A stretch of DNA of 64,000 bases from a virus (lineage: Duplodnaviria; Heunggongvirae; Uroviricota; Caudoviricetes). The stretch lies in IMG/VR virus record IMGVR_UViG_2713896909_000009, positions 32,001 through 96,000 of that record, one strand, 5' to 3'. This document shows, in pieces, positions 50,644 to 58,170 of this stretch. The notes beneath the pieces were generated by a model. That model saw nothing but the letters and a program-made list of their open reading frames with translations. It had not been told where the DNA came from and ran no database searches. The translations under genes and the position numbers were made by a program. How positions within the stretch are numbered: position 1 is the first letter of the stretch; the number at the start of each line of letters is the position of its first letter.

Positions 50644-51078
50644 ATGTCTGACGTCTCAACAAACCTCTATAAGAGTCAGTTGTTGGACTATTACTATCAG
50701 CGGCGCGCTGAATCGTCCATAAACAAAGGCTCCCGATTTTTAATCAGCAAGGCCGTTTTCGGTACCAGTTCACTGGTTACTAAGAAAGGAGATGGTACTT
50801 ATGAGATTGGAGAACTGCCAAAGGCTTTCGATCTGGCAGAGCTGACCAGTCAATTTTGCACCATCAACCTCGTCCCAACCTACTCCGGCGGGATAATTAC
50901 TGTCCGAATGGACCTTGATCAAAGCCAGTTGCAGGAAGGGAAAAACTACCCATTCAACACACTGGTTGTCCTGGATAACGAGAATAAGCCCATCGCAATT
51001 ATTTGTGTTCAGGAAGACTCTCTGTATGTGGGCAAAACATATACCGCAGTTATGGCCATAAACACGACTACAGCATAA
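50644..51078 (+). CDS. Hypothetical tail fibre-associated protein
   Basis: ORF track 144 aa. Confidence 0.45.
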
Positions 51079-51089
51079 GGATATGCTTG

Positions 51090-54000
51090 ATGAATGACGT
51101 TACAGTTGTTACATCGGTCACTTACCCATCACCCGAGTCGTTGGCTCTGGTGGCTGATGTGCAATACCACGAACCATATCTGTCAGCCGCGCTAAACCGA
51201 AAATTCAGGGGAATTGTTGCCCCTGGATTTTATGCCGGTTTCTTGCCTAAGCCTGGTGGTGGGATGAACCTGTTAATCACCTCAGTGGATGGTGATAAAA
51301 CTGCTGGCGCTGCGTCAGTGGATATTGGTGAATTCTACCAGGTAACTATTCAGCACCGTAAGGATATTTCTCTTGCACTTAGTGCAGGTAAGAAATATGC
51401 AATTGTGCTGAAGGGAAGATACCTCCTTGGAGAGGATACCTATCAGGTTAATACCGCGTCACATATTCATGCGGCTGAATTTATTGCCAGAATCTATACC
51501 GATTCATATCAGTTGGGAGATGGGGAGCTACTTGTTTGTACGGTAAATATCCCTGCTGGCGTATCTGCCATTACCCAGGAGATGATTGATACATCTGAGC
51601 GTATCAACCGCACGATCGGCATTGAAATATCAGACTCTGTAACCAGCACCAGAAGTGATGTTGCGGCAAGTTCGCTGGCAGTTAAAAAAGCCTACGATCT
51701 GGCGAAAAGCAAGTATACGGCGCAGGATGCAAGCACAACGCAAAAGGGATTAGTTCAGCTCAGTAGCGAAACTAACAGCGACAGCGAAACAATGGCGGCT
51801 ACCCCTAAAGCCGTTAAGTCTGTAAAAGATCTTGCTGATACTAAAGCGCCAATAGAAAGCCCGAATCTGACAGGGAAACCAGGTGCCCCGACTGCGGCCC
51901 CTGGTACAAACAGCAATCAGATCGCAAATACAGCATTTGTTCATGCCGCTATAAACGCGCTTATCAACGGCGCCCCAGGAACACTGGATACGCTGAAAGA
52001 AATTGCGGCCGCTATCAACAACGATCCGAAGTTCGGCACGACTATCAATAATGCGCTGAATCTTAAGGCTCCTTTAGCAAACCCTGCATTCACCGGAATA
52101 CCTACCGCGCCTACAGCACCGCAGGGTACAAATAACACACAGATAGCAACGACTGCTTATGTTAGGGCGGCTATTTCCGCATTGGTCGGTTCATCTCCTG
52201 AAGCTCTGGATACTCTGAATGAGTTAGCTGCGGCGCTTGGCAATGACCCGAACTTTGCGACAACCATGACCAATGCACTGGCAGGGAAACAGCCTCTTGA
52301 TGCAACCTTAACCGCGCTCGCTGCCCTTGCGACTGGTGCAAATAAACTGCCTTATTTCACCGGTAAGGATACGGTAGCGCAGACTGATTTAACGTCAGTC
52401 GGTCGCGATATTCTGGCTAAAACAAGCACACTGGCCGTTATCCAATACCTTGGTTTAAGAGAACTTGGCACAAGCGGTGAAAAGATTCCCCTGTTGAGCA
52501 CGGCTAACACATGGAGTGCACGCCAGACTTTCAACGGCGGGATCACCGGGGCGCTGACAGGGAACGCCGACACCGCTACAAGATTGCAGACGGCGAGAAA
52601 AATTAATGATGTTCTATTTGATGGTTCAAAGGATATCACTTTAACTGCCGAAAACTTAAAGCTTGAGCAAACAGTAGAATTAGCTGCTGGTGCTTTACAG
52701 AAAAAACAGAACGGCGCAGATATTCCAGATAAGGGTGCTTTCCTGAACAATATTAACGCGGTCAGTAAAACAGATTTTGCTGCTAAGCGTGGGATGCGTT
52801 ATGTGCGAGTTAACGCTCCGGCAGGTGTAACGCCCGGAAAATATTACCCTGTTGTTGTAAAACGTAACTCGGGTTCAACAAGTGAACTTGCATCAAGGGT
52901 AGTTATATCCACTAAATCTGTTGGTGGAGCAGATCCTATGAACAACTGCGAGTTCAGCGGATTTGTGATGCCTGGCGGCTGGACTGACAGAGGGCGTTAT
53001 GCCTATGGAATGTTCTGGCAATATCACAACAATGAACGAGCAATTCATTCGATAATGATGAGTGCTAAGTCAGATGATTTGCACTCTGTATTCTATGTTG
53101 ATGGTGCTGCTTTCCCTGTCTTTGCATTTATTGAAGATGGCCTGTCAATATCCGCACCGGGTGCTGATCTCGTTGTTAATGATACGACCTATAAGTTTGG
53201 GGCAATAAACCCGGCGACAGAATGTGTCGCGGCTGACGTTATCCTTGATTTTAAAAGTGGGCGTGGTTTTTATGAATCTCATTCGTTAATTGTTAACGAT
53301 AACTTGTCGTGCAAAAAACTTTTCGCAACAGACGAAATTGTAGCGCGTGGTGGTAATCAGATTCGAATGATAGGCGGGGAATACGGTGCGTTATGGAGAA
53401 ATGACGGCGCTAAAACTTACCTGCTGCTTACCAACAAAGGTGATGTTTATGGCGAGCATAATGCATTAAGACCGTTTGCTGTTGATAACGCAACTGGTGA
53501 ACTGACTGTTGGAACCAAACTATCCGCAAGTCTGAACGGTAACGCATCGACAGCAACCAAGTTACAAAATGCGATAAATATTAATGGCGTTAAATTTGAT
53601 GGTTCCAGTGATATAAATATTAATACGTTAGTATCCCGAAACCGTGTTACAGCATTAAGTGGGAGCGCAAAGGGTACGCCAGGTATCCAAATGTATGAAG
53701 CGTACAACAATGGATATCCTTTTACTTATGGTAACGTTCTTCATCTTACTGGCGCAGCAGCAGTTGGCGAAGGAGAGTTATTTATTGGGTGGAGTGGGAC
53801 CAGCGGCGCTCATGCTCCGGCATATATTCGCTCCCGACGAGATACCACAGATGCTAACTGGTCGCCGTGGGCGCAGCTTTACACGTCAGCTCATCCTCCG
53901 GCAGAGTTTTATCCAGTCGGTGCCCCAATTCCGTGGCCTTCTGATGTAGTACCTACAGGTTATGCTATTATGCAGGGGCAAACTTTTGATAAGTCCGCAT

Positions 54001-54521
54001 ACCCAAAACTTGCAGTGGCTTATCCATCTGGTGTTATCCCTGATATGCGTGGATGGACAATCAAGGGTAAACCCGCCAGTGGGCGTGCCGTATTGTCTCA
54101 GGAACAGGATGGCATCAAGTCGCACACCCACAGTGCCAGCGCATCAAATACTGACCTCGGTACTAAAACGACCAGCTCATTTGATTACGGGACAAAAACG
54201 GTCAGCACGTTTAACCACGGTACAAAAACGACAAACAATACAGGAGCGCATACGCATACTGTCGGTGGTCGTTACGGTGGTGACTCCATCGGGGGTAAAC
54301 AACGCGTACAGGTATCAGGAACCAACCAGGTGTCAAGCTCTGCCGGAGCACATGCCCATACTGTCGATATTGGTCAGCATAACCACACCGTAGGTATTGG
54401 TGCCCATGCGCACACTGTGGCATTGGGTGCGCACGGACATACCATCACGGTTAACGCTACTGGTAATGCGGAAAACACCGTAAAAAACATTGCATATAAC
54501 TATATTGTGAGGCTTGCATGA
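51090..54521 (+). CDS. Tail fibre protein (P1 S-like) with C-terminal His-box repeats
   Basis: ORF track 51003-54521; ATG 51090 after AAGGA; conserved fibre repeats ([39 protein letters not shown]) and C-terminal GAHxHT repeats. Confidence 0.85.
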
Positions 54522-55387
54522 TTAAGTTAATTCTTTCAGCGCCAGTACATGAAATGGCTGAAGCATTTAAGCGGGTATTCGCAAATGCAGATAATGTGGA
54601 TGTTGTAGAAAAAACATTTGAAGCAATCCCGGAATTTGACTGCATGGTCAGTGCGGCAAACAGTTTCGGGCTAATGGATGGCGGCGTTGACGCTGCCATT
54701 ACTGCATTCTTTGGTACTCAGTTACAGACACGTGTTCAGAATCATATTCTTCGTGAATATCTTGGTGAGCAGCCTGTAGGCACTGCATTTGTTATTGAAA
54801 CGGGGGATAACAACCATCCCTGGCTGGTACATGCGCCAACAATGCGCGTTCCGCTGACCATTGACGGAACAGACGCTGTATATAACGCCACGTGGGCTGC
54901 TTTACTTGCCATCTTTCAGCACAATAAAAATGCAACGACAGACAGGAAAATAAAGACGGTGGTATTCCCTGCAATGGGGGCCGGATGTGGTCAGGTGCCG
55001 TTTGAAAGTGTTGCCCGGCAGATGAAGCAGGCATGGGATAACTTTAATAAAGAAACAGAAGCAATTAACTGGGAATACGCACACTCCCGCCAGTTGGCAG
55101 TATTTAATACATGCGCGTACTGCCCGGGTACTCCTGTTTGTCGTTATGCGGATATTAAATATATTGGACTTGGCGATTACCGGACGTATTGCTTACGGTC
55201 GGGGCAGGTATGCATTAATCCTGAACATCAGGTTGATGACGTGCTGACTAATAATCGTTCTCGCCCGGGGGCGCATATGCATCAGATTAATCCGGTAAAA
55301 TCCGTAGGTAATATTGCCATTGGCGCACACAGCCACGGAAGGAATATCACCATTGGTGCTCATTCCCATACCCCACATAAACAATAA
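54518..55387 (+). CDS. Macro-domain protein with Cys-rich, His-box-repeat C-terminus
   Basis: ORF track 289 aa; macro motifs [19 protein letters not shown] and [13 protein letters not shown]-terminal [21 protein letters not shown] overlaps fibre stop. Confidence 0.6.
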
Positions 55388-55405
55388 TTCTTTCTCTGAT
55401 TAGAG

Positions 55406-55990
55406 GTGAAAATGACTTTCAGAATGAGTGCTGAAGCACAAACCATTCGCGTATTTAATTATCTCGATGGTACAAATGAATTTATTGGAGAAAGTGATGC
55501 CTATATTCCACCACATACAGGGCTTCCGGCAAACAGCACAGATATTGCTCCTCCTAAGATTCCAGCTGGTTTTGCCGCTATATTCGACACAACCCGAAAC
55601 TTATGGAATTTAATAGAGGACCATAGAGGAAAAACTGTTTATCACACTGAAACAGGTGACGCTAAAACTATATTTAAATTAGGCGCTTTGCCTGAGGATG
55701 TTACGTGCATTCCTCCTGATGATGAGTATCAGAAGTGGAATGGAAATCAATGGGTTACAGACGATGAGGCGAAGCATCAAGCTCAGATAACCTATGCAAA
55801 CTCAAAGAAAAATGAGTTGTTAAAGCACGCAAGCGTAGAGATAGCGATCTTACAAGATGCTGTTGATTTATGTATTGCAACAGATGAAGAGAAAGTTTTA
55901 TTAAATGAATGGAAAAAATACAGAGTGCTTGTAAATAGGTTAAATGAAGATGACATCATTCAAATGAAAGTCCCTGAAATACCAGTTTGA
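55406..55990 (+). CDS. Tail fibre assembly protein (Tfa / P1 U-like)
   Basis: ORF track 194 aa; C-terminal ATDEEKVLLNEWKKYRVLVNRL typical of Tfa chaperones. Confidence 0.75.
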   Translation: MKMTFRMSAEAQTIRVFNYLDGTNEFIGESDAYIPPHTGLPANSTDIAPPKIPAGFAAIFDTTRNLWNLIEDHRGKTVYHTETGDAKTIFKLGALPEDVTCIPPDDEYQKWNGNQWVTDDEAKHQAQITYANSKKNELLKHASVEIAILQDAVDLCIATDEEKVLLNEWKKYRVLVNRLNEDDIIQMKVPEIPV

Positions 55991-56003
55991 TTTATATATT
56001 AAT

Positions 56004-56044
56004 AAGCCACTGTTGACAGGACTGTTTTACAGTGGCTTGTTTTA
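56004..56044. terminator. Bidirectional terminator hairpin between convergent genes
   Basis: AAGCCACTG...CAGTGGCTT with T-run on plus side. Confidence 0.55.
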
Positions 56045-57193
56045 TTATCCAAACCAATTTTCTAGAACATTTTCAAATTTATGGGTAACTTGCCACCATA
56101 AATAGTTCTCTAATACATATTTCTTTCCGTTATTTGCAATTTGTTCTAATTTTTCGGAGTGTAATGTTTCATATATATCACTAGCTAAACTTTCTGGCAA
56201 CATTGGTTCATTTATATGAAATCCTGTATGGTTATTTTTTACAAATTCAACCATTCCACCTCGAGTGCTAACTAAAACGGGTTTTCCTGCCCCCATAGCT
56301 TCTATAGCAACCATGCAGAACGGTTCTTGAAACTGAGATGGGATTACAACTAGATCGGCTATAGGATAGTAACGGTACATATCATCTGGTTTTACCCCGC
56401 CAACAAGATGACAACGCGAACCAATAGTTCCAGCAAGTTCCCTTACTTGTTTTTGATATGCAGCTTTTTCTCCTTTATCTTTATTATTGTAGTCACCAAC
56501 AACTACAAGTTCTATATTGTCACATGATTTTATCAATTTTTTAAACGCTTGTAATAGTAAAACAGTCCCTTTTTCAGGGGAGATCCTTCCCGCATAAAAG
56601 ATAACTTTTTTCTCAGAGGGAATGCCTAAATCTTGTTTTGTTAGCGGGGGTAGCCCTTTATCTAGATTGTGTGGTTCTGTACCATTAGGAACTATACAAA
56701 TTTCAGCGTCAGGAAGATGTTTTTCATAAAAATCCTTTAAATACTGACTTGGAACAAGCATTTTCACATTGCTATCTAGCCCTTTCGGTGTAAAGGCATT
56801 ATGCATATGCATTATCATTTTTGCGTCAGGAGCTTTCTCTCTAATTTGACGATAAAGTTTCATGCTGTTATGAACAATAATAATGCTATCGTTTGTGATA
56901 TTGAAATCTTTAGCAATGTTTAACACTCGTTGTGAATATGGAATAGGATCTATTCTGCTCCATTTTTGAAATATCCGTTTATAAAGACGGCTAAACCCTA
57001 TTCTATGGATAGAGCATCGCTCATTAACAATATCTTTTTCTGAGAAACCATCCTCTCGAATGCATGCTATACGATTTGGTATTCTTGTTCTCTTTGCGAC
57101 TTGATATATCCAAGTTTCAACAGCTGCTGCGCCACGAGGTGGTATTGAAAATATTGGTGTAACTGTAAATATTAATTTGTCAATCATGAGCAA
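56045..57193 (-). CDS. GT1-family (GT-B, GT4-like) glycosyltransferase, AT-rich cargo
   Basis: ORF track 382 aa; EAMGAGKPVLVSTRGG and PSQFQEPFCMVAIEA signature region. Confidence 0.8.
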   Translation of the reverse strand: MLMIDKLIFTVTPIFSIPPRGAAAVETWIYQVAKRTRIPNRIACIREDGFSEKDIVNERCSIHRIGFSRLYKRIFQKWSRIDPIPYSQRVLNIAKDFNITNDSIIIVHNSMKLYRQIREKAPDAKMIMHMHNAFTPKGLDSNVKMLVPSQYLKDFYEKHLPDAEICIVPNGTEPHNLDKGLPPLTKQDLGIPSEKKVIFYAGRISPEKGTVLLLQAFKKLIKSCDNIELVVVGDYNNKDKGEKAAYQKQVRELAGTIGSRCHLVGGVKPDDMYRYYPIADLVVIPSQFQEPFCMVAIEAMGAGKPVLVSTRGGMVEFVKNNHTGFHINEPMLPESLASDIYETLHSEKLEQIANNGKKYVLENYLWWQVTHKFENVLENWFG

Positions 57194-57731
57194 CTATCCT
57201 CTTATAATCTTTTTCCTTTAAATGTTTTTTTAGGGTTGCGGGAGAGCCCGCATACATTGTATTAGCAGGAACATCAGTATTTACAACGCTATTTGCAGCT
57301 ATAACACTATTGTCTCCTATTTTTACACCTGGTAGCACAGTTGTATTTGCCCCAATCCAAACATTACGGCCTATTTTTATTGGAGCGCAAATTGTTTCTT
57401 TGGGACGTTTGCTTGGTGTTAGTGGATGCGTGACAGTTGTTAATACAACGTTGGGGCCAATGGCAGAGTTACATCCAATATCTATTGTTTTTGCATCGAG
57501 AAAAACACAATTTGCGTTAATGAAGACCTTTTTATCAATAATTATATTGCCATTCTCAAAATAAAATGGAGCTGTTATTGTTGAGTCTTCACTTACTTTA
57601 ACTCCTGTTTTTTTTAATGTGATTAATTTTTTTCTTTTTGAGATCAAGGTATAATTAAATATATGTCTTGCTTTCTTTGCTTTCTTTTTTTGAAAAATTA
57701 TATAGAAATAATATGTTAGCAAATCAAACAT
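57180..57731 (-). CDS. Hexapeptide-repeat acetyltransferase (left-handed beta-helix)
   Basis: ORF track 183 aa; IGRNVWIGANTTVLPGVKIGDNSVIAANSVV. Confidence 0.8.
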   Translation of the reverse strand: MFDLLTYYFYIIFQKKKAKKARHIFNYTLISKRKKLITLKKTGVKVSEDSTITAPFYFENGNIIIDKKVFINANCVFLDAKTIDIGCNSAIGPNVVLTTVTHPLTPSKRPKETICAPIKIGRNVWIGANTTVLPGVKIGDNSVIAANSVVNTDVPANTMYAGSPATLKKHLKEKDYKRIVAHD

Positions 57732-57755
57732 TGTTGTTTTACTTCCATTTAAAAT

Positions 57756-58022
57756 TTAACTATCAAATGTGGCTCCTATTTCTCGCATTTTGTTAAGTAT
57801 GATGTTTATTTCATTGCTACCGAGAGAAGTTTGGGCAGCTATGAAAAAAAGTATGTGCAATGACATAGATCTGTTATTTTCTTTGTTTATATATTTTCTC
57901 CACTGGCTATCGCTGCTGACCCCGGCTAGTTCTGCCATTTGATTCCCTGTATACCCAAGCGTTTCTTTGAATTGACGCAAATCTTGTGATTTGGGGGGGG
58001 TGTAGTTGTTTATTAACCTCAT
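57756..58022 (-). CDS. Small HTH (XRE-like) protein
   Basis: ORF track 57756-58085; start placed at ATG 58022; LRQFKETLGYTGNQMAELAGV. Confidence 0.4.
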   Translation of the reverse strand: MRLINNYTPPKSQDLRQFKETLGYTGNQMAELAGVSSDSQWRKYINKENNRSMSLHILFFIAAQTSLGSNEINIILNKMREIGATFDS

Positions 58023-58152
58023 ATTAAACCCATTATTGGTAAGCTTTCGTTGGTGTAATGGTAGCACCAATGGGGCTGCTGTCAAGCGTCTTTTCTTTAT
58101 AAATATAGGGAGCCATCAAAATCTGACATCAATTATCTATCGAAATATTTTG

Positions 58153-58170
58153 AATGACTGGTGAGAAGTT
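58153..58170 (+). promoter_or_regulatory. Putative late promoter element (degenerate copy) upstream of lysis genes
   Basis: AATGACTGGTGAGAAGTT about 40 nt upstream of holin GTG. Confidence 0.3.

Follow-up and report, generated by a model that had tools for sequence, protein, structure and literature searches.

A macro-domain gene fixed between the tail-fibre and chaperone genes of a mobile phage receptor-binding cassette: a candidate ADP-ribose-derivative hydrolase

Gene organization of the fibre-macro-chaperone locus

We analyzed a stretch of 64,000 nucleotides (nt) of tailed-phage DNA (IMG/VR virus record IMGVR_UViG_2713896909_000009, positions 32,001 to 96,000), referred to throughout as the window, with positions counted from its start. 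The subject of this study is a gene on its + strand that encodes a 289-residue protein with a macro domain and is located between the gene of a P1 S-like tail fibre and the gene of the tail-fibre assembly chaperone (Tfa, P1 U-like). The three genes belong to a mobile receptor-binding cassette, and the macro protein may be an enzyme that processes ADP-ribose derivatives, a function that we propose tentatively. The coordinates of all features are given in Table 1.

A first-pass annotation of this DNA had placed the start of the macro reading frame on the fibre stop codon, and this is what we found: the macro ATG (54518-54520) and the fibre TGA (54519-54521) overlap as ATGA, with a GAGG located 5 bases 5' of the ATG. 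The same annotation described the gene as wedged between the fibre gene and its chaperone, in agreement with the Pfam scan, in which the macro protein has no Caudo_TAP match and the next reading frame has one (E 4.9e-32). The chaperone most likely starts at the ATG located 24 nt past the macro stop, which is preceded by its own AGAGG 5 bases upstream. Having a Caudo_TAP chaperone gene downstream, the window fibre resembles the P1 S/U, P2 H/G and lambda Stf/Tfa pairs; in these classical pairs, however, nothing lies between fibre and chaperone (seen for P1 and STYP1), and comparison with P1 bore out the first-pass statement that U comes directly after S there. The mechanically called fibre reading frame begins with a TTG at 51003 and overlaps gene R (50644-51078), and the true fibre start is most likely the ATG at 51090 (MNDVTVV...), 11 nt after R, as in P1.

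A sequence scan within the fibre-macro-Tfa region detected no terminator and no excess of promoter-like sites, from which we infer that the three genes probably form one late transcription unit behind the P1 late promoter LPs. A promoter belonging to the macro gene itself, for lysogenic expression, was considered and rejected, because the gene lacks a promoter-like site on its upstream side and the region has fewer such sites than its shuffled versions. At the 3' end of the fibre gene, in the conserved VKN codons, there is an in-phase -1 slippery-type heptamer, A AAA AAC (54482-54488). Fusion of fibre and macro protein by a -1 frameshift is nevertheless impossible, because the -1 frame meets a TAA at 54497-54499, ahead of the macro ATG, and the heptamer is probably coincidental.

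Table 1. Features of the fibre-macro-chaperone locus, in window coordinates.
Feature	Position	Strand	Basis or remark
Tail-fibre gene, P1 S-like	51090..54521	+	Pfam Phage_fiber_2, Gp34_trimer, Collar; P1-like to about 52608, then a different gp37-like tip
Five GxHxH His boxes, fibre needle region	54243..54440	+	Motif positions; DNA repeat families D1-D5
Conserved fibre end, precedes macro gene	54462..54518	+	All readable junctions, 76/84 loci
Translational coupling signals	54509..54521	+	GAGG Shine-Dalgarno 54509-54512 and ATGA overlap 54518-54521
Macro-domain protein gene	54518..55387	+	289 residues; stop TAA 55385-55387
Macro domain, residues 1-195	54518..55102	+	Pfam part 54647-55024; AlphaFold2, Foldseek, 1njr profile alignment
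Catalytic loop 1, N48 and G55-G56-V57-D58 (N-x6-GGVD)	54659..54691	+	Alignment with OiMacroD; conservation in 64 sequences
Gly-rich loop 2, G154-A-G-C-G158	54977..54991	+	Aligned with loop 2 of TTHA0132 and OiMacroD
Cys-rich module: C199, C202, C208, C225, C232, then H237-Q238	55112..55231	+	Conservation, dN/dS, AlphaFold2 hairpin
His-box tail: GAHMH 55268, GAHSH 55322, GAHSH 55355	55268..55384	+	Motif scan, fibre-needle profile match
Tail-fibre assembly chaperone (Tfa, P1 U-like)	55412..55990	+	Pfam Caudo_TAP; PHROG 105

Distribution and mobility of the cassette

To describe the surroundings of the gene, we surveyed 84 loci, comprising 80 from IMG/VR, three annotated phages and the window itself. 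In all 76 readable upstream junctions the macro ATG overlaps the fibre stop by 4 nt; at the remaining eight loci the upstream reading frame was not captured or was mis-picked. The fibres at these 76 junctions end with the consensus ...GN[AS]E[NT]TV[KR]NI[AV][FY]NYIVRLA and carry 5-7 HxH motifs in their last 200 residues. On the other side, 78 of the 84 loci have the Tfa gene at -28 to +72 nt, mostly -11 to +24, relative to the end of the macro gene. The order fibre-macro-Tfa is annotated in Gifsy-1 (lambdoid side tail fibre), in SEN4/SEN5 (P2-like) and in E. coli phage Chuche, so that the hosts of the cassette include lambdoid (Gifsy-1), P2-like (SEN4/5, Chuche) and P1-like phages. Thousands of enterobacterial prophages carry this block of three genes. 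The N-terminal lengths of the fibres vary widely among the surveyed loci, which identifies the distal module as the mobile part. These results show that the macro gene travels as a constant component of a mobile receptor-binding cassette composed of fibre tip, macro gene and Tfa gene.

The idea of a recombined fibre-tip module, also raised in the first-pass annotation, was borne out: the block at 52609-58152 replaces the C segment, cin and lydC of P1, and the combination of tip, macro gene and Tfa recurs in lambdoid and P2-like phages. The rarity that it implied did not hold, as the family comprises about 2,258 clusters at 90% identity, named in RefSeq either 'macro domain-containing protein' or 'phage tail protein', and corresponds to PHROG 2613, of unknown function. 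The window protein is 100% identical to a RefSeq 'macro domain-containing protein' (P0001), and the Gifsy-1 record already notes the pfam01661 Macro domain, so both the protein and its domain had been labelled before. Among 5,426 complete E. coli genomes the gene is present in 128 (~2.4%), at 108 chromosomal and 22 plasmid places; the family also occurs in Erwinia and Izhakiella genomes, and Citrobacter and Enterobacter proteins are found among the homologues. Full-text literature searches, which extended to anti-Thoeris hydrolases and covered few subscription journals, returned no paper on the cassette, on the C-terminal extension described below or on the function, nor did a look at the paper on phages SEN4/SEN5 turn up anything on the cassette.

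Closely related fibre tips also occur in loci that lack the macro gene. The last 370-510 nt of the window fibre (54000-54521) are 84-89% identical in DNA to the gp37 tips of two T4-like phages, Lv5cm and PTE-Eco15, and the tip is 86% DNA-identical to that of the P2-like STYP1; immediately behind the fibre gene, STYP1 has Tfa, and Lv5cm and PTE-Eco15 have a short Tfa/gp38-type gene. Since these tips go with Tfa or gp38 alone, the macro gene is accessory to the fibre and apparently dispensable for building this fibre type. The same tip has been exchanged among unrelated phage families, both with and without the macro gene.

Identity, fold and active site of the macro domain

The macro-domain signatures reported in the first-pass annotation were recovered by profile search and by structure prediction. 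Pfam PF01661 (Macro) matched residues 44-169 over its full profile (1-118), with an E value of 2.2e-19 and 70 bits against a cut-off of 22. AlphaFold2 supplied with 18 close homologues returned an unusable model, with a mean predicted local distance difference test score (pLDDT) of 49.8; a rerun on a 64-sequence alignment that included distant standalone relatives gave a pLDDT of about 90-97 for residues 1-200. The top Foldseek matches in the PDB were all macro domains with a probability of 1.00, the first being 1njr (E 1.2e-11, 201 columns), followed by macroH2A, TTHA0132, OiMacroD, MacroD2, YmdB and DarG, and 1njr was also first when the family profile was searched against the PDB (E 4.9e-6). 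The 201-column structural alignment to 1njr reaches past the core macro domain and suggests that a beta-alpha unit precedes this core at the N-terminus; the N-terminal sequence alignment is not significant (score -2.9).

The family profile sets N48 and G55-G56-V57-D58 against the OiMacroD loop N-x6-GGVD, and 5lbp, deposited as 'mutant N30A', has an alanine opposite N48. Across 64 sequences of 46-93% identity, D41, G55, G56, D58, G154 and G158 are invariant and N48 is nearly so, with D41 matching the Asp of GDAIVNAAN in TTHA0132. The second loop, GAGCG (154-158), would by analogy be the diphosphate-binding loop, and it lacks the aromatic residue of the MacroD motif G-[IVA]-[YF]-G. Judged by the conservation of these motifs, the active site looks intact, and binding of ADP-ribose or hydrolysis of its derivatives is predicted.

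We do not file the protein as MacroD proper, because loop 2 lacks the aromatic residue and the best score against the NCBIfam equivalogs for O-acetyl-ADP-ribose deacetylases and ADP-ribose-binding proteins, 50.9 bits, is far below their cut-offs of 200-315. The HAPT of the macro protein aligns with the HVPT of 1njr (H-x-P-T motif), and on profile and model comparison we place the protein in a Ymx7-like clade. It does not appear to be DarG/TARG-like either: the DarG model in PADLOC matches with an E value of 0.0033 over 39 residues only, and DarG structures rank below Ymx7 and MacroD in Foldseek.

The yeast protein of 1njr, Ymx7 (YMR087W), is thus the best match by both structure and profile, sharing the N...GGxD loop and the H-x-P-T motif. 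Ymx7 is an ADP-ribose-1''-phosphatase, whereas the activity of the phage protein is predicted; the two are 19% identical, and Ymx7 is a cellular protein with no Cys/His extension and no link to phage tails. The MacroD-type proteins (OiMacroD 5l9k, human MacroD2, E. coli YmdB) share N-x6-GGVD with the phage protein residue for residue, along with a second Gly-rich loop (Foldseek E about 1e-6), but their identity is about 20-23%, in addition to the differences in loop 2 and in equivalog scores.

The enzyme part is a member of a widely distributed clade of macro proteins of ~200 residues, at 40-55% identity, with representatives in Chloroflexota, Acidobacteriota and cyanobacteria and even within multidomain proteins of eukaryote-like type. 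The closest standalone relative (P0121, 64% identity) has no Cys/His tail and is encoded in another phage (L088 2104-5487), between ParB_N/methyltransferase genes and a GpA-type terminase gene; its location upstream of the terminase is an accessory-gene position. Viral relatives detected by structure include giant-virus macro proteins and the chimallivirus proteins PhiPA3 '271' and Noxifer (BFVD).

A Cys/His-rich extension that resembles the fibre needle

The C-terminus had been described at first pass as Cys-rich and ending in GAHxH repeats like those of the fibre, and our analysis agrees on each of these features. Five Cys follow residue 195 (199, 202, 208, 225 and 232). In the enterobacterial family (n=18 sequences), C202, C225 and C232 show no variation and C208 shows almost none. 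AlphaFold2 places a beta-hairpin at 211-225 with a pLDDT of 52-72, and this module is probably a small Zn-binding hairpin. The boxes GAHMH, GAHSH and GAHSH, at residues 251, 269 and 280, lie in the last 39 residues; the glycine of the first box, G251, is invariant in the 18 sequences, and the number of boxes ranges from 1 to about 4 among homologues.

The fibre itself has five GxHxH boxes within its last 92 residues. The motif G[ASQ]HxH occurs ten times in the six-frame translation of the 64 kb, and eight of these occurrences fall in the fibre needle and the macro tail, a clustering far beyond chance. Moreover, the macro tail matches the profile of the fibre His-box needle with a probability of 95% (E 3e-8, 18 columns; reversed control, E 0.45), and DNA motifs of 15-17 nt are common to the boxes of both genes. 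The window fibre is similar to a T4 gp37-type tip in its collar domain, HxH boxes and ...NYIVRLA end, and the macro tail has the same box motif; unlike a gp37-type needle, this tail has 1-4 boxes and neither a collar nor a tip domain. Consistent with this, the Pfam scan found no Collar or fibre match in the macro protein, and the C-terminal 100 residues matched nothing in Pfam at E values up to 10. A PDB match of these 100 residues to HypE was dismissed as chance (E 0.64).

Within the phage collection the extension is confined to these macro proteins, being absent from the standalone ~200-residue relatives and from long relatives such as P0123. A big-database search, whose word filter passed few sequences, did not reveal it on other proteins; two of its five candidates were fragments of truncated macro genes. 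In Izhakiella australiensis (L093 2068-2970, 300 residues) the middle region is Cys/His-rich (CGC..CDCGCG..CRCG) and unrelated to the Cys module of Erwinia or E. coli. This protein keeps the terminal His boxes and a GVKK end, and at least three copies are present in the genome, at contig ends. We rejected the possibility that its middle region is a frameshifted copy of the Cys module, as there is no DNA similarity beyond the last 60 nt.

These observations raise the question of whether the macro protein is a subunit attached to the virion or to the fibre. According to this alternative, the His-box tail would, with Tfa, form a short metal-centred trimeric needle or dock on the needle of the fibre, and the macro domain would ride on the tip or virion; the attached protein would act at adsorption, through binding or hydrolysis of an ADP-sugar-like ligand of the surface or periplasm, or would be taken into the next host. 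Small separate proteins that are encoded just after the distal fibre gene and attach to the fibre tip are known in the gp38 adhesins of the T2/S16 type. Those adhesins have no known sequence or fold relation to the macro protein and are not known to carry an enzymatic macro domain, and attachment of the macro protein is putative. A subunit of this kind would account for the unvarying position of the gene beside fibre and Tfa, and for its coupling with them, throughout the surveyed loci and in three tail types, for the restriction of the extension to the cassette version and for its match to the needle profile. The His tail is disordered in the AlphaFold2 monomer model, as for a segment that folds on assembly, the replaced middle region of the Izhakiella protein is again rich in Cys and His with the boxes kept, and late expression suits a structural or packaged protein. 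However, closely related tips do without such a subunit, fibres remain extracellular and no extracellular macro substrate is known, and the literature searches turned up no virion proteomics. Taking into account the weak constraint on the tail described in the next section, we consider virion attachment somewhat unlikely.

The macro protein could also be a fibre maturation factor, either a metallochaperone that, by means of its Cys/His tail, loads Fe/Zn into the HxH sites of the fibre or an enzyme that strips an ADP-ribosyl mark from fibre or Tfa. Such a role is in keeping with a Cys/His-rich tail adjoining an HxH-rich fibre, with a gene order that puts macro ahead of the chaperone, and with the Cys/His-rich sequence retained in Izhakiella. 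Yet the related tips assemble with Tfa or gp38 alone, a metallochaperone would leave the conserved macro active site unexplained, and we know of no ADP-ribosylation of fibres; this role therefore seems to us very improbable.

Selection and inheritance of the macro gene

The ratio of nonsynonymous to synonymous substitution rates (dN/dS) was 0.09-0.21 for the macro domain, 0.11-0.34 for the Cys module and 0.28-0.86 for the His tail, which means that purifying selection is strong on the enzyme part and weak on the His tail. Of the 79 genes recovered from the surveyed loci, 78 encode at least 269 residues, and one is a 196-residue truncation. No other piece of the cassette is as conserved as the macro domain: mean protein distances are 0.17 for this domain, 0.43 for the end of the fibre and 0.28-0.40 for Tfa. 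The divergence of the tail correlates with that of the macro domain (r 0.93) more closely than with the fibre (0.69) or Tfa (0.68), which indicates that the macro gene evolves as one unit; a tail swapped with fibre or Tfa was rejected on the same basis. Individual His boxes have been lost or have decayed in some lineages (GTPTHT, GAYNH, AYQQ), and a 255-residue variant lacks most of the tail, although its cluster is small (11 sequences, from 8 contigs).

The high dN/dS of the tail, its decayed boxes, the short variant and the correlation with the macro domain in preference to the fibre or Tfa all count against a virion-attached subunit. The weak constraint on the extension speaks against a precise structural role, and the existence of an extension points to some physical connection with fibre, Tfa or the virion.

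The same data can be confronted with a neutral or selfish origin, in which a housekeeping-type ADP-ribose-1''-phosphatase or O-acetyl-ADP-ribose deacetylase landed between fibre and Tfa and has since been hitch-hiking with the exchanged cassette, its His-box tail being a vestige of the fibre 3' end fused in frame by His-box recombination. In 1998, Tetart et al. reportedly identified His boxes as recombination sites in T-even fibres, and the DNA motifs common to the boxes of fibre and macro tail fit such an event. The closest fold is that of Ymx7, an ADP-ribose-1''-phosphatase, the standalone relatives reside in ordinary bacterial neighbourhoods, and the tail is near-neutral in one group, with its boxes decaying. 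A passenger without benefit is harder to reconcile with strong purifying selection on the enzyme and Cys module, with a length of at least 269 residues in nearly all of the recovered genes, with maintenance of the gene in three phage lineages and several genera, with a macro domain that is the most conserved element of the cassette, and with the invariant G251. We therefore judge this origin unlikely.

The phage background and the replaced P1 segment

From 40 kb on, the window corresponds to a P1-like phage-plasmid that shares 96.6% identity with P1 across 76% of the query, and the segment studied here is 100% identical to an Escherichia albertii plasmid. Homology to P1 extends through bplA, gene 16, R and the constant S part as far as 52608, and it returns at 58153; the intervening 5.5 kb stand in for the invertible C segment, cin and lydC of P1. 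The + strand of this replacement encodes a different distal fibre part, the macro protein and the U/Tfa-type chaperone, and the - strand a glycosyltransferase, an acetyltransferase and a small reading frame. The P1-like element of the window has thus lost cin, the C segment with its alternative Sv'/U' genes, and lydC. With cin and the C segment lost, the fibre is fixed in one orientation. A cix-like remnant at 52440-52608 matches both the cixL and the cixR flanks of P1 at 91-94%.

The three - strand genes (56045-58085) come straight after the chaperone and encode a WaaK/RfaK-like N-acetylglucosaminyltransferase of lipopolysaccharide (NF012028, 657.9 bits, cut-off 618), a hexapeptide O-acetyltransferase and a 109-residue XRE-like protein, behind a sigma-70-like promoter with 10 of 12 positions matching (58085-58058). 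This set is probably a lysogenic-conversion operon that alters the lipopolysaccharide core and adjoins the receptor-binding genes. Related glycosyltransferase or acetyltransferase genes follow Tfa at L008, L009 and L089 (99%), in Salmonella (L067, 67% for the glycosyltransferase) and in Erwinia (L092, 56% for the acetyltransferase); since only a few of the surveyed loci have such genes, a general link between the cassette and adjacent lipopolysaccharide-modifying genes was rejected. In two related plasmids (H35 and H42), the IS5-like element ISKpn26 is inserted inside the fibre / lipopolysaccharide-modification block.

Possible function and significance of the macro protein

Macro domains are central to conflicts over NAD+ and ADP-ribose. 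Taking the evidence together, it is quite possible, and it is the reading we tentatively favor, that the cassette macro protein is a late-expressed, cytoplasmic hydrolase of ADP-ribose derivatives from a Ymx7/MacroD-like clade, carried as an accessory in the mobile fibre cassette and countering immunity based on NAD+ and ADP-ribose. More generally, we infer that it processes an ADP-ribose derivative to the benefit of the phage, most plausibly against such immunity. Translationally coupled to the fibre through the ATGA overlap and a Shine-Dalgarno sequence of its own, the protein would be made late from the fibre operon and would act in the infected cytoplasm late in infection, removing ADP-ribose adducts or destroying the ADP-ribose-derived products of NAD+-consuming immunity. 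Immunity of this type may fire when structural proteins such as the fibre and its chaperone appear, in which case the antidote would be genetically tied to its potential trigger. The cassette-specific Cys module and His boxes would then bind metal and serve to oligomerise the enzyme or to dock it on fibre or Tfa, without being needed for fibre building.

A hydrolase of this kind is consistent with the macro fold, the active-site motifs, the purifying selection, the dispensability for assembly, the constant late arrangement and the accessory position of P0121. The suggestion of the first-pass annotation that the protein counters ADP-ribosylation-based defences is a reasonable one by analogy, and it echoes an earlier proposal that the Macro, NADAR and Nudix proteins which phages encode in the midst of their morphogenesis genes counter ADP-ribose signals (PMC9503650). 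Two further findings make it reasonable: the phage macro protein AdfM reverses DNA ADP-ribosylation by DarT2 and is, according to its 2026 description, the first among phage macro proteins for which a role in counter-defence has been demonstrated (PMC13309987), and alleles of a side tail fibre and its chaperone set the sensitivity to Thoeris II (His-ADPR) (bioRxiv 10.64898/2026.06.04.730250). AdfM (PhiKZ gp104; PMC13309987) and the NADAR protein AdfN (PMC11825919) serve as the functional model for the predicted enzyme, being phage ADP-ribose enzymes that neutralise host ADP-ribosylation, but neither is located in a fibre cassette and neither has a His-box tail. In addition, AdfM is DarG2-like, with an active site of the N22/K80 type, and it corresponds to PhiPA3 gp108, separate from PhiPA3 '271', the chimallivirus relative of the cassette macro family.

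Several points weigh against a counter-defence enzyme. We know of no substrate, defence partner or phenotype for the macro protein, and the gene neighbourhoods of its standalone bacterial relatives (Chloroflexota and others) give no consistent functional hint. Late expression sits poorly with counter-defence, unless the defence acts late or the protein is carried in the virion. The weak PADLOC match (E 0.003) suggests that the protein is not of the DarG/TARG type, its nearest relative in the structural comparison appears to be a housekeeping-type ADP-ribose-1''-phosphatase, and a purely cytoplasmic enzyme leaves the Cys/His extension unexplained. The notion of an antidote linked to its trigger is, moreover, borrowed by analogy from an unrelated Pseudomonas phage system.

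A more specific proposal takes one of two forms. The extension could be a Tfa-assisted, metal-centred device for trimerisation or docking that mounts the macro enzyme on the fibre or virion, giving particle-borne processing of ADP-ribose or a similar compound in lambdoid, P2-like and P1-like phages; or the protein could be a trigger-linked antidote that degrades ADP-ribose-derived signals elicited by the co-translated fibre-chaperone complex. We hold this proposal, in either form, to be doubtful.

The cassette macro protein represents a distinct subfamily welded into the receptor-binding cassette, the most often exchanged part of tailed-phage genomes. The presence of the cassette in well-studied models (Gifsy-1 of Salmonella LT2, P2-like and P1-like phages) opens it to standard genetics. 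If the protein is neither a counter-defence enzyme nor borne on the fibre, it would be an ordinary accessory gene product, and the RefSeq label 'phage tail protein' would then be unfounded. As a fibre-borne protein, it would provide the first example of a virion appendage with an enzymatic macro domain. If the protein neutralises ADP-ribose-based defence, host range would be set jointly by adsorption and immunity evasion, and the two would be inherited as one block.

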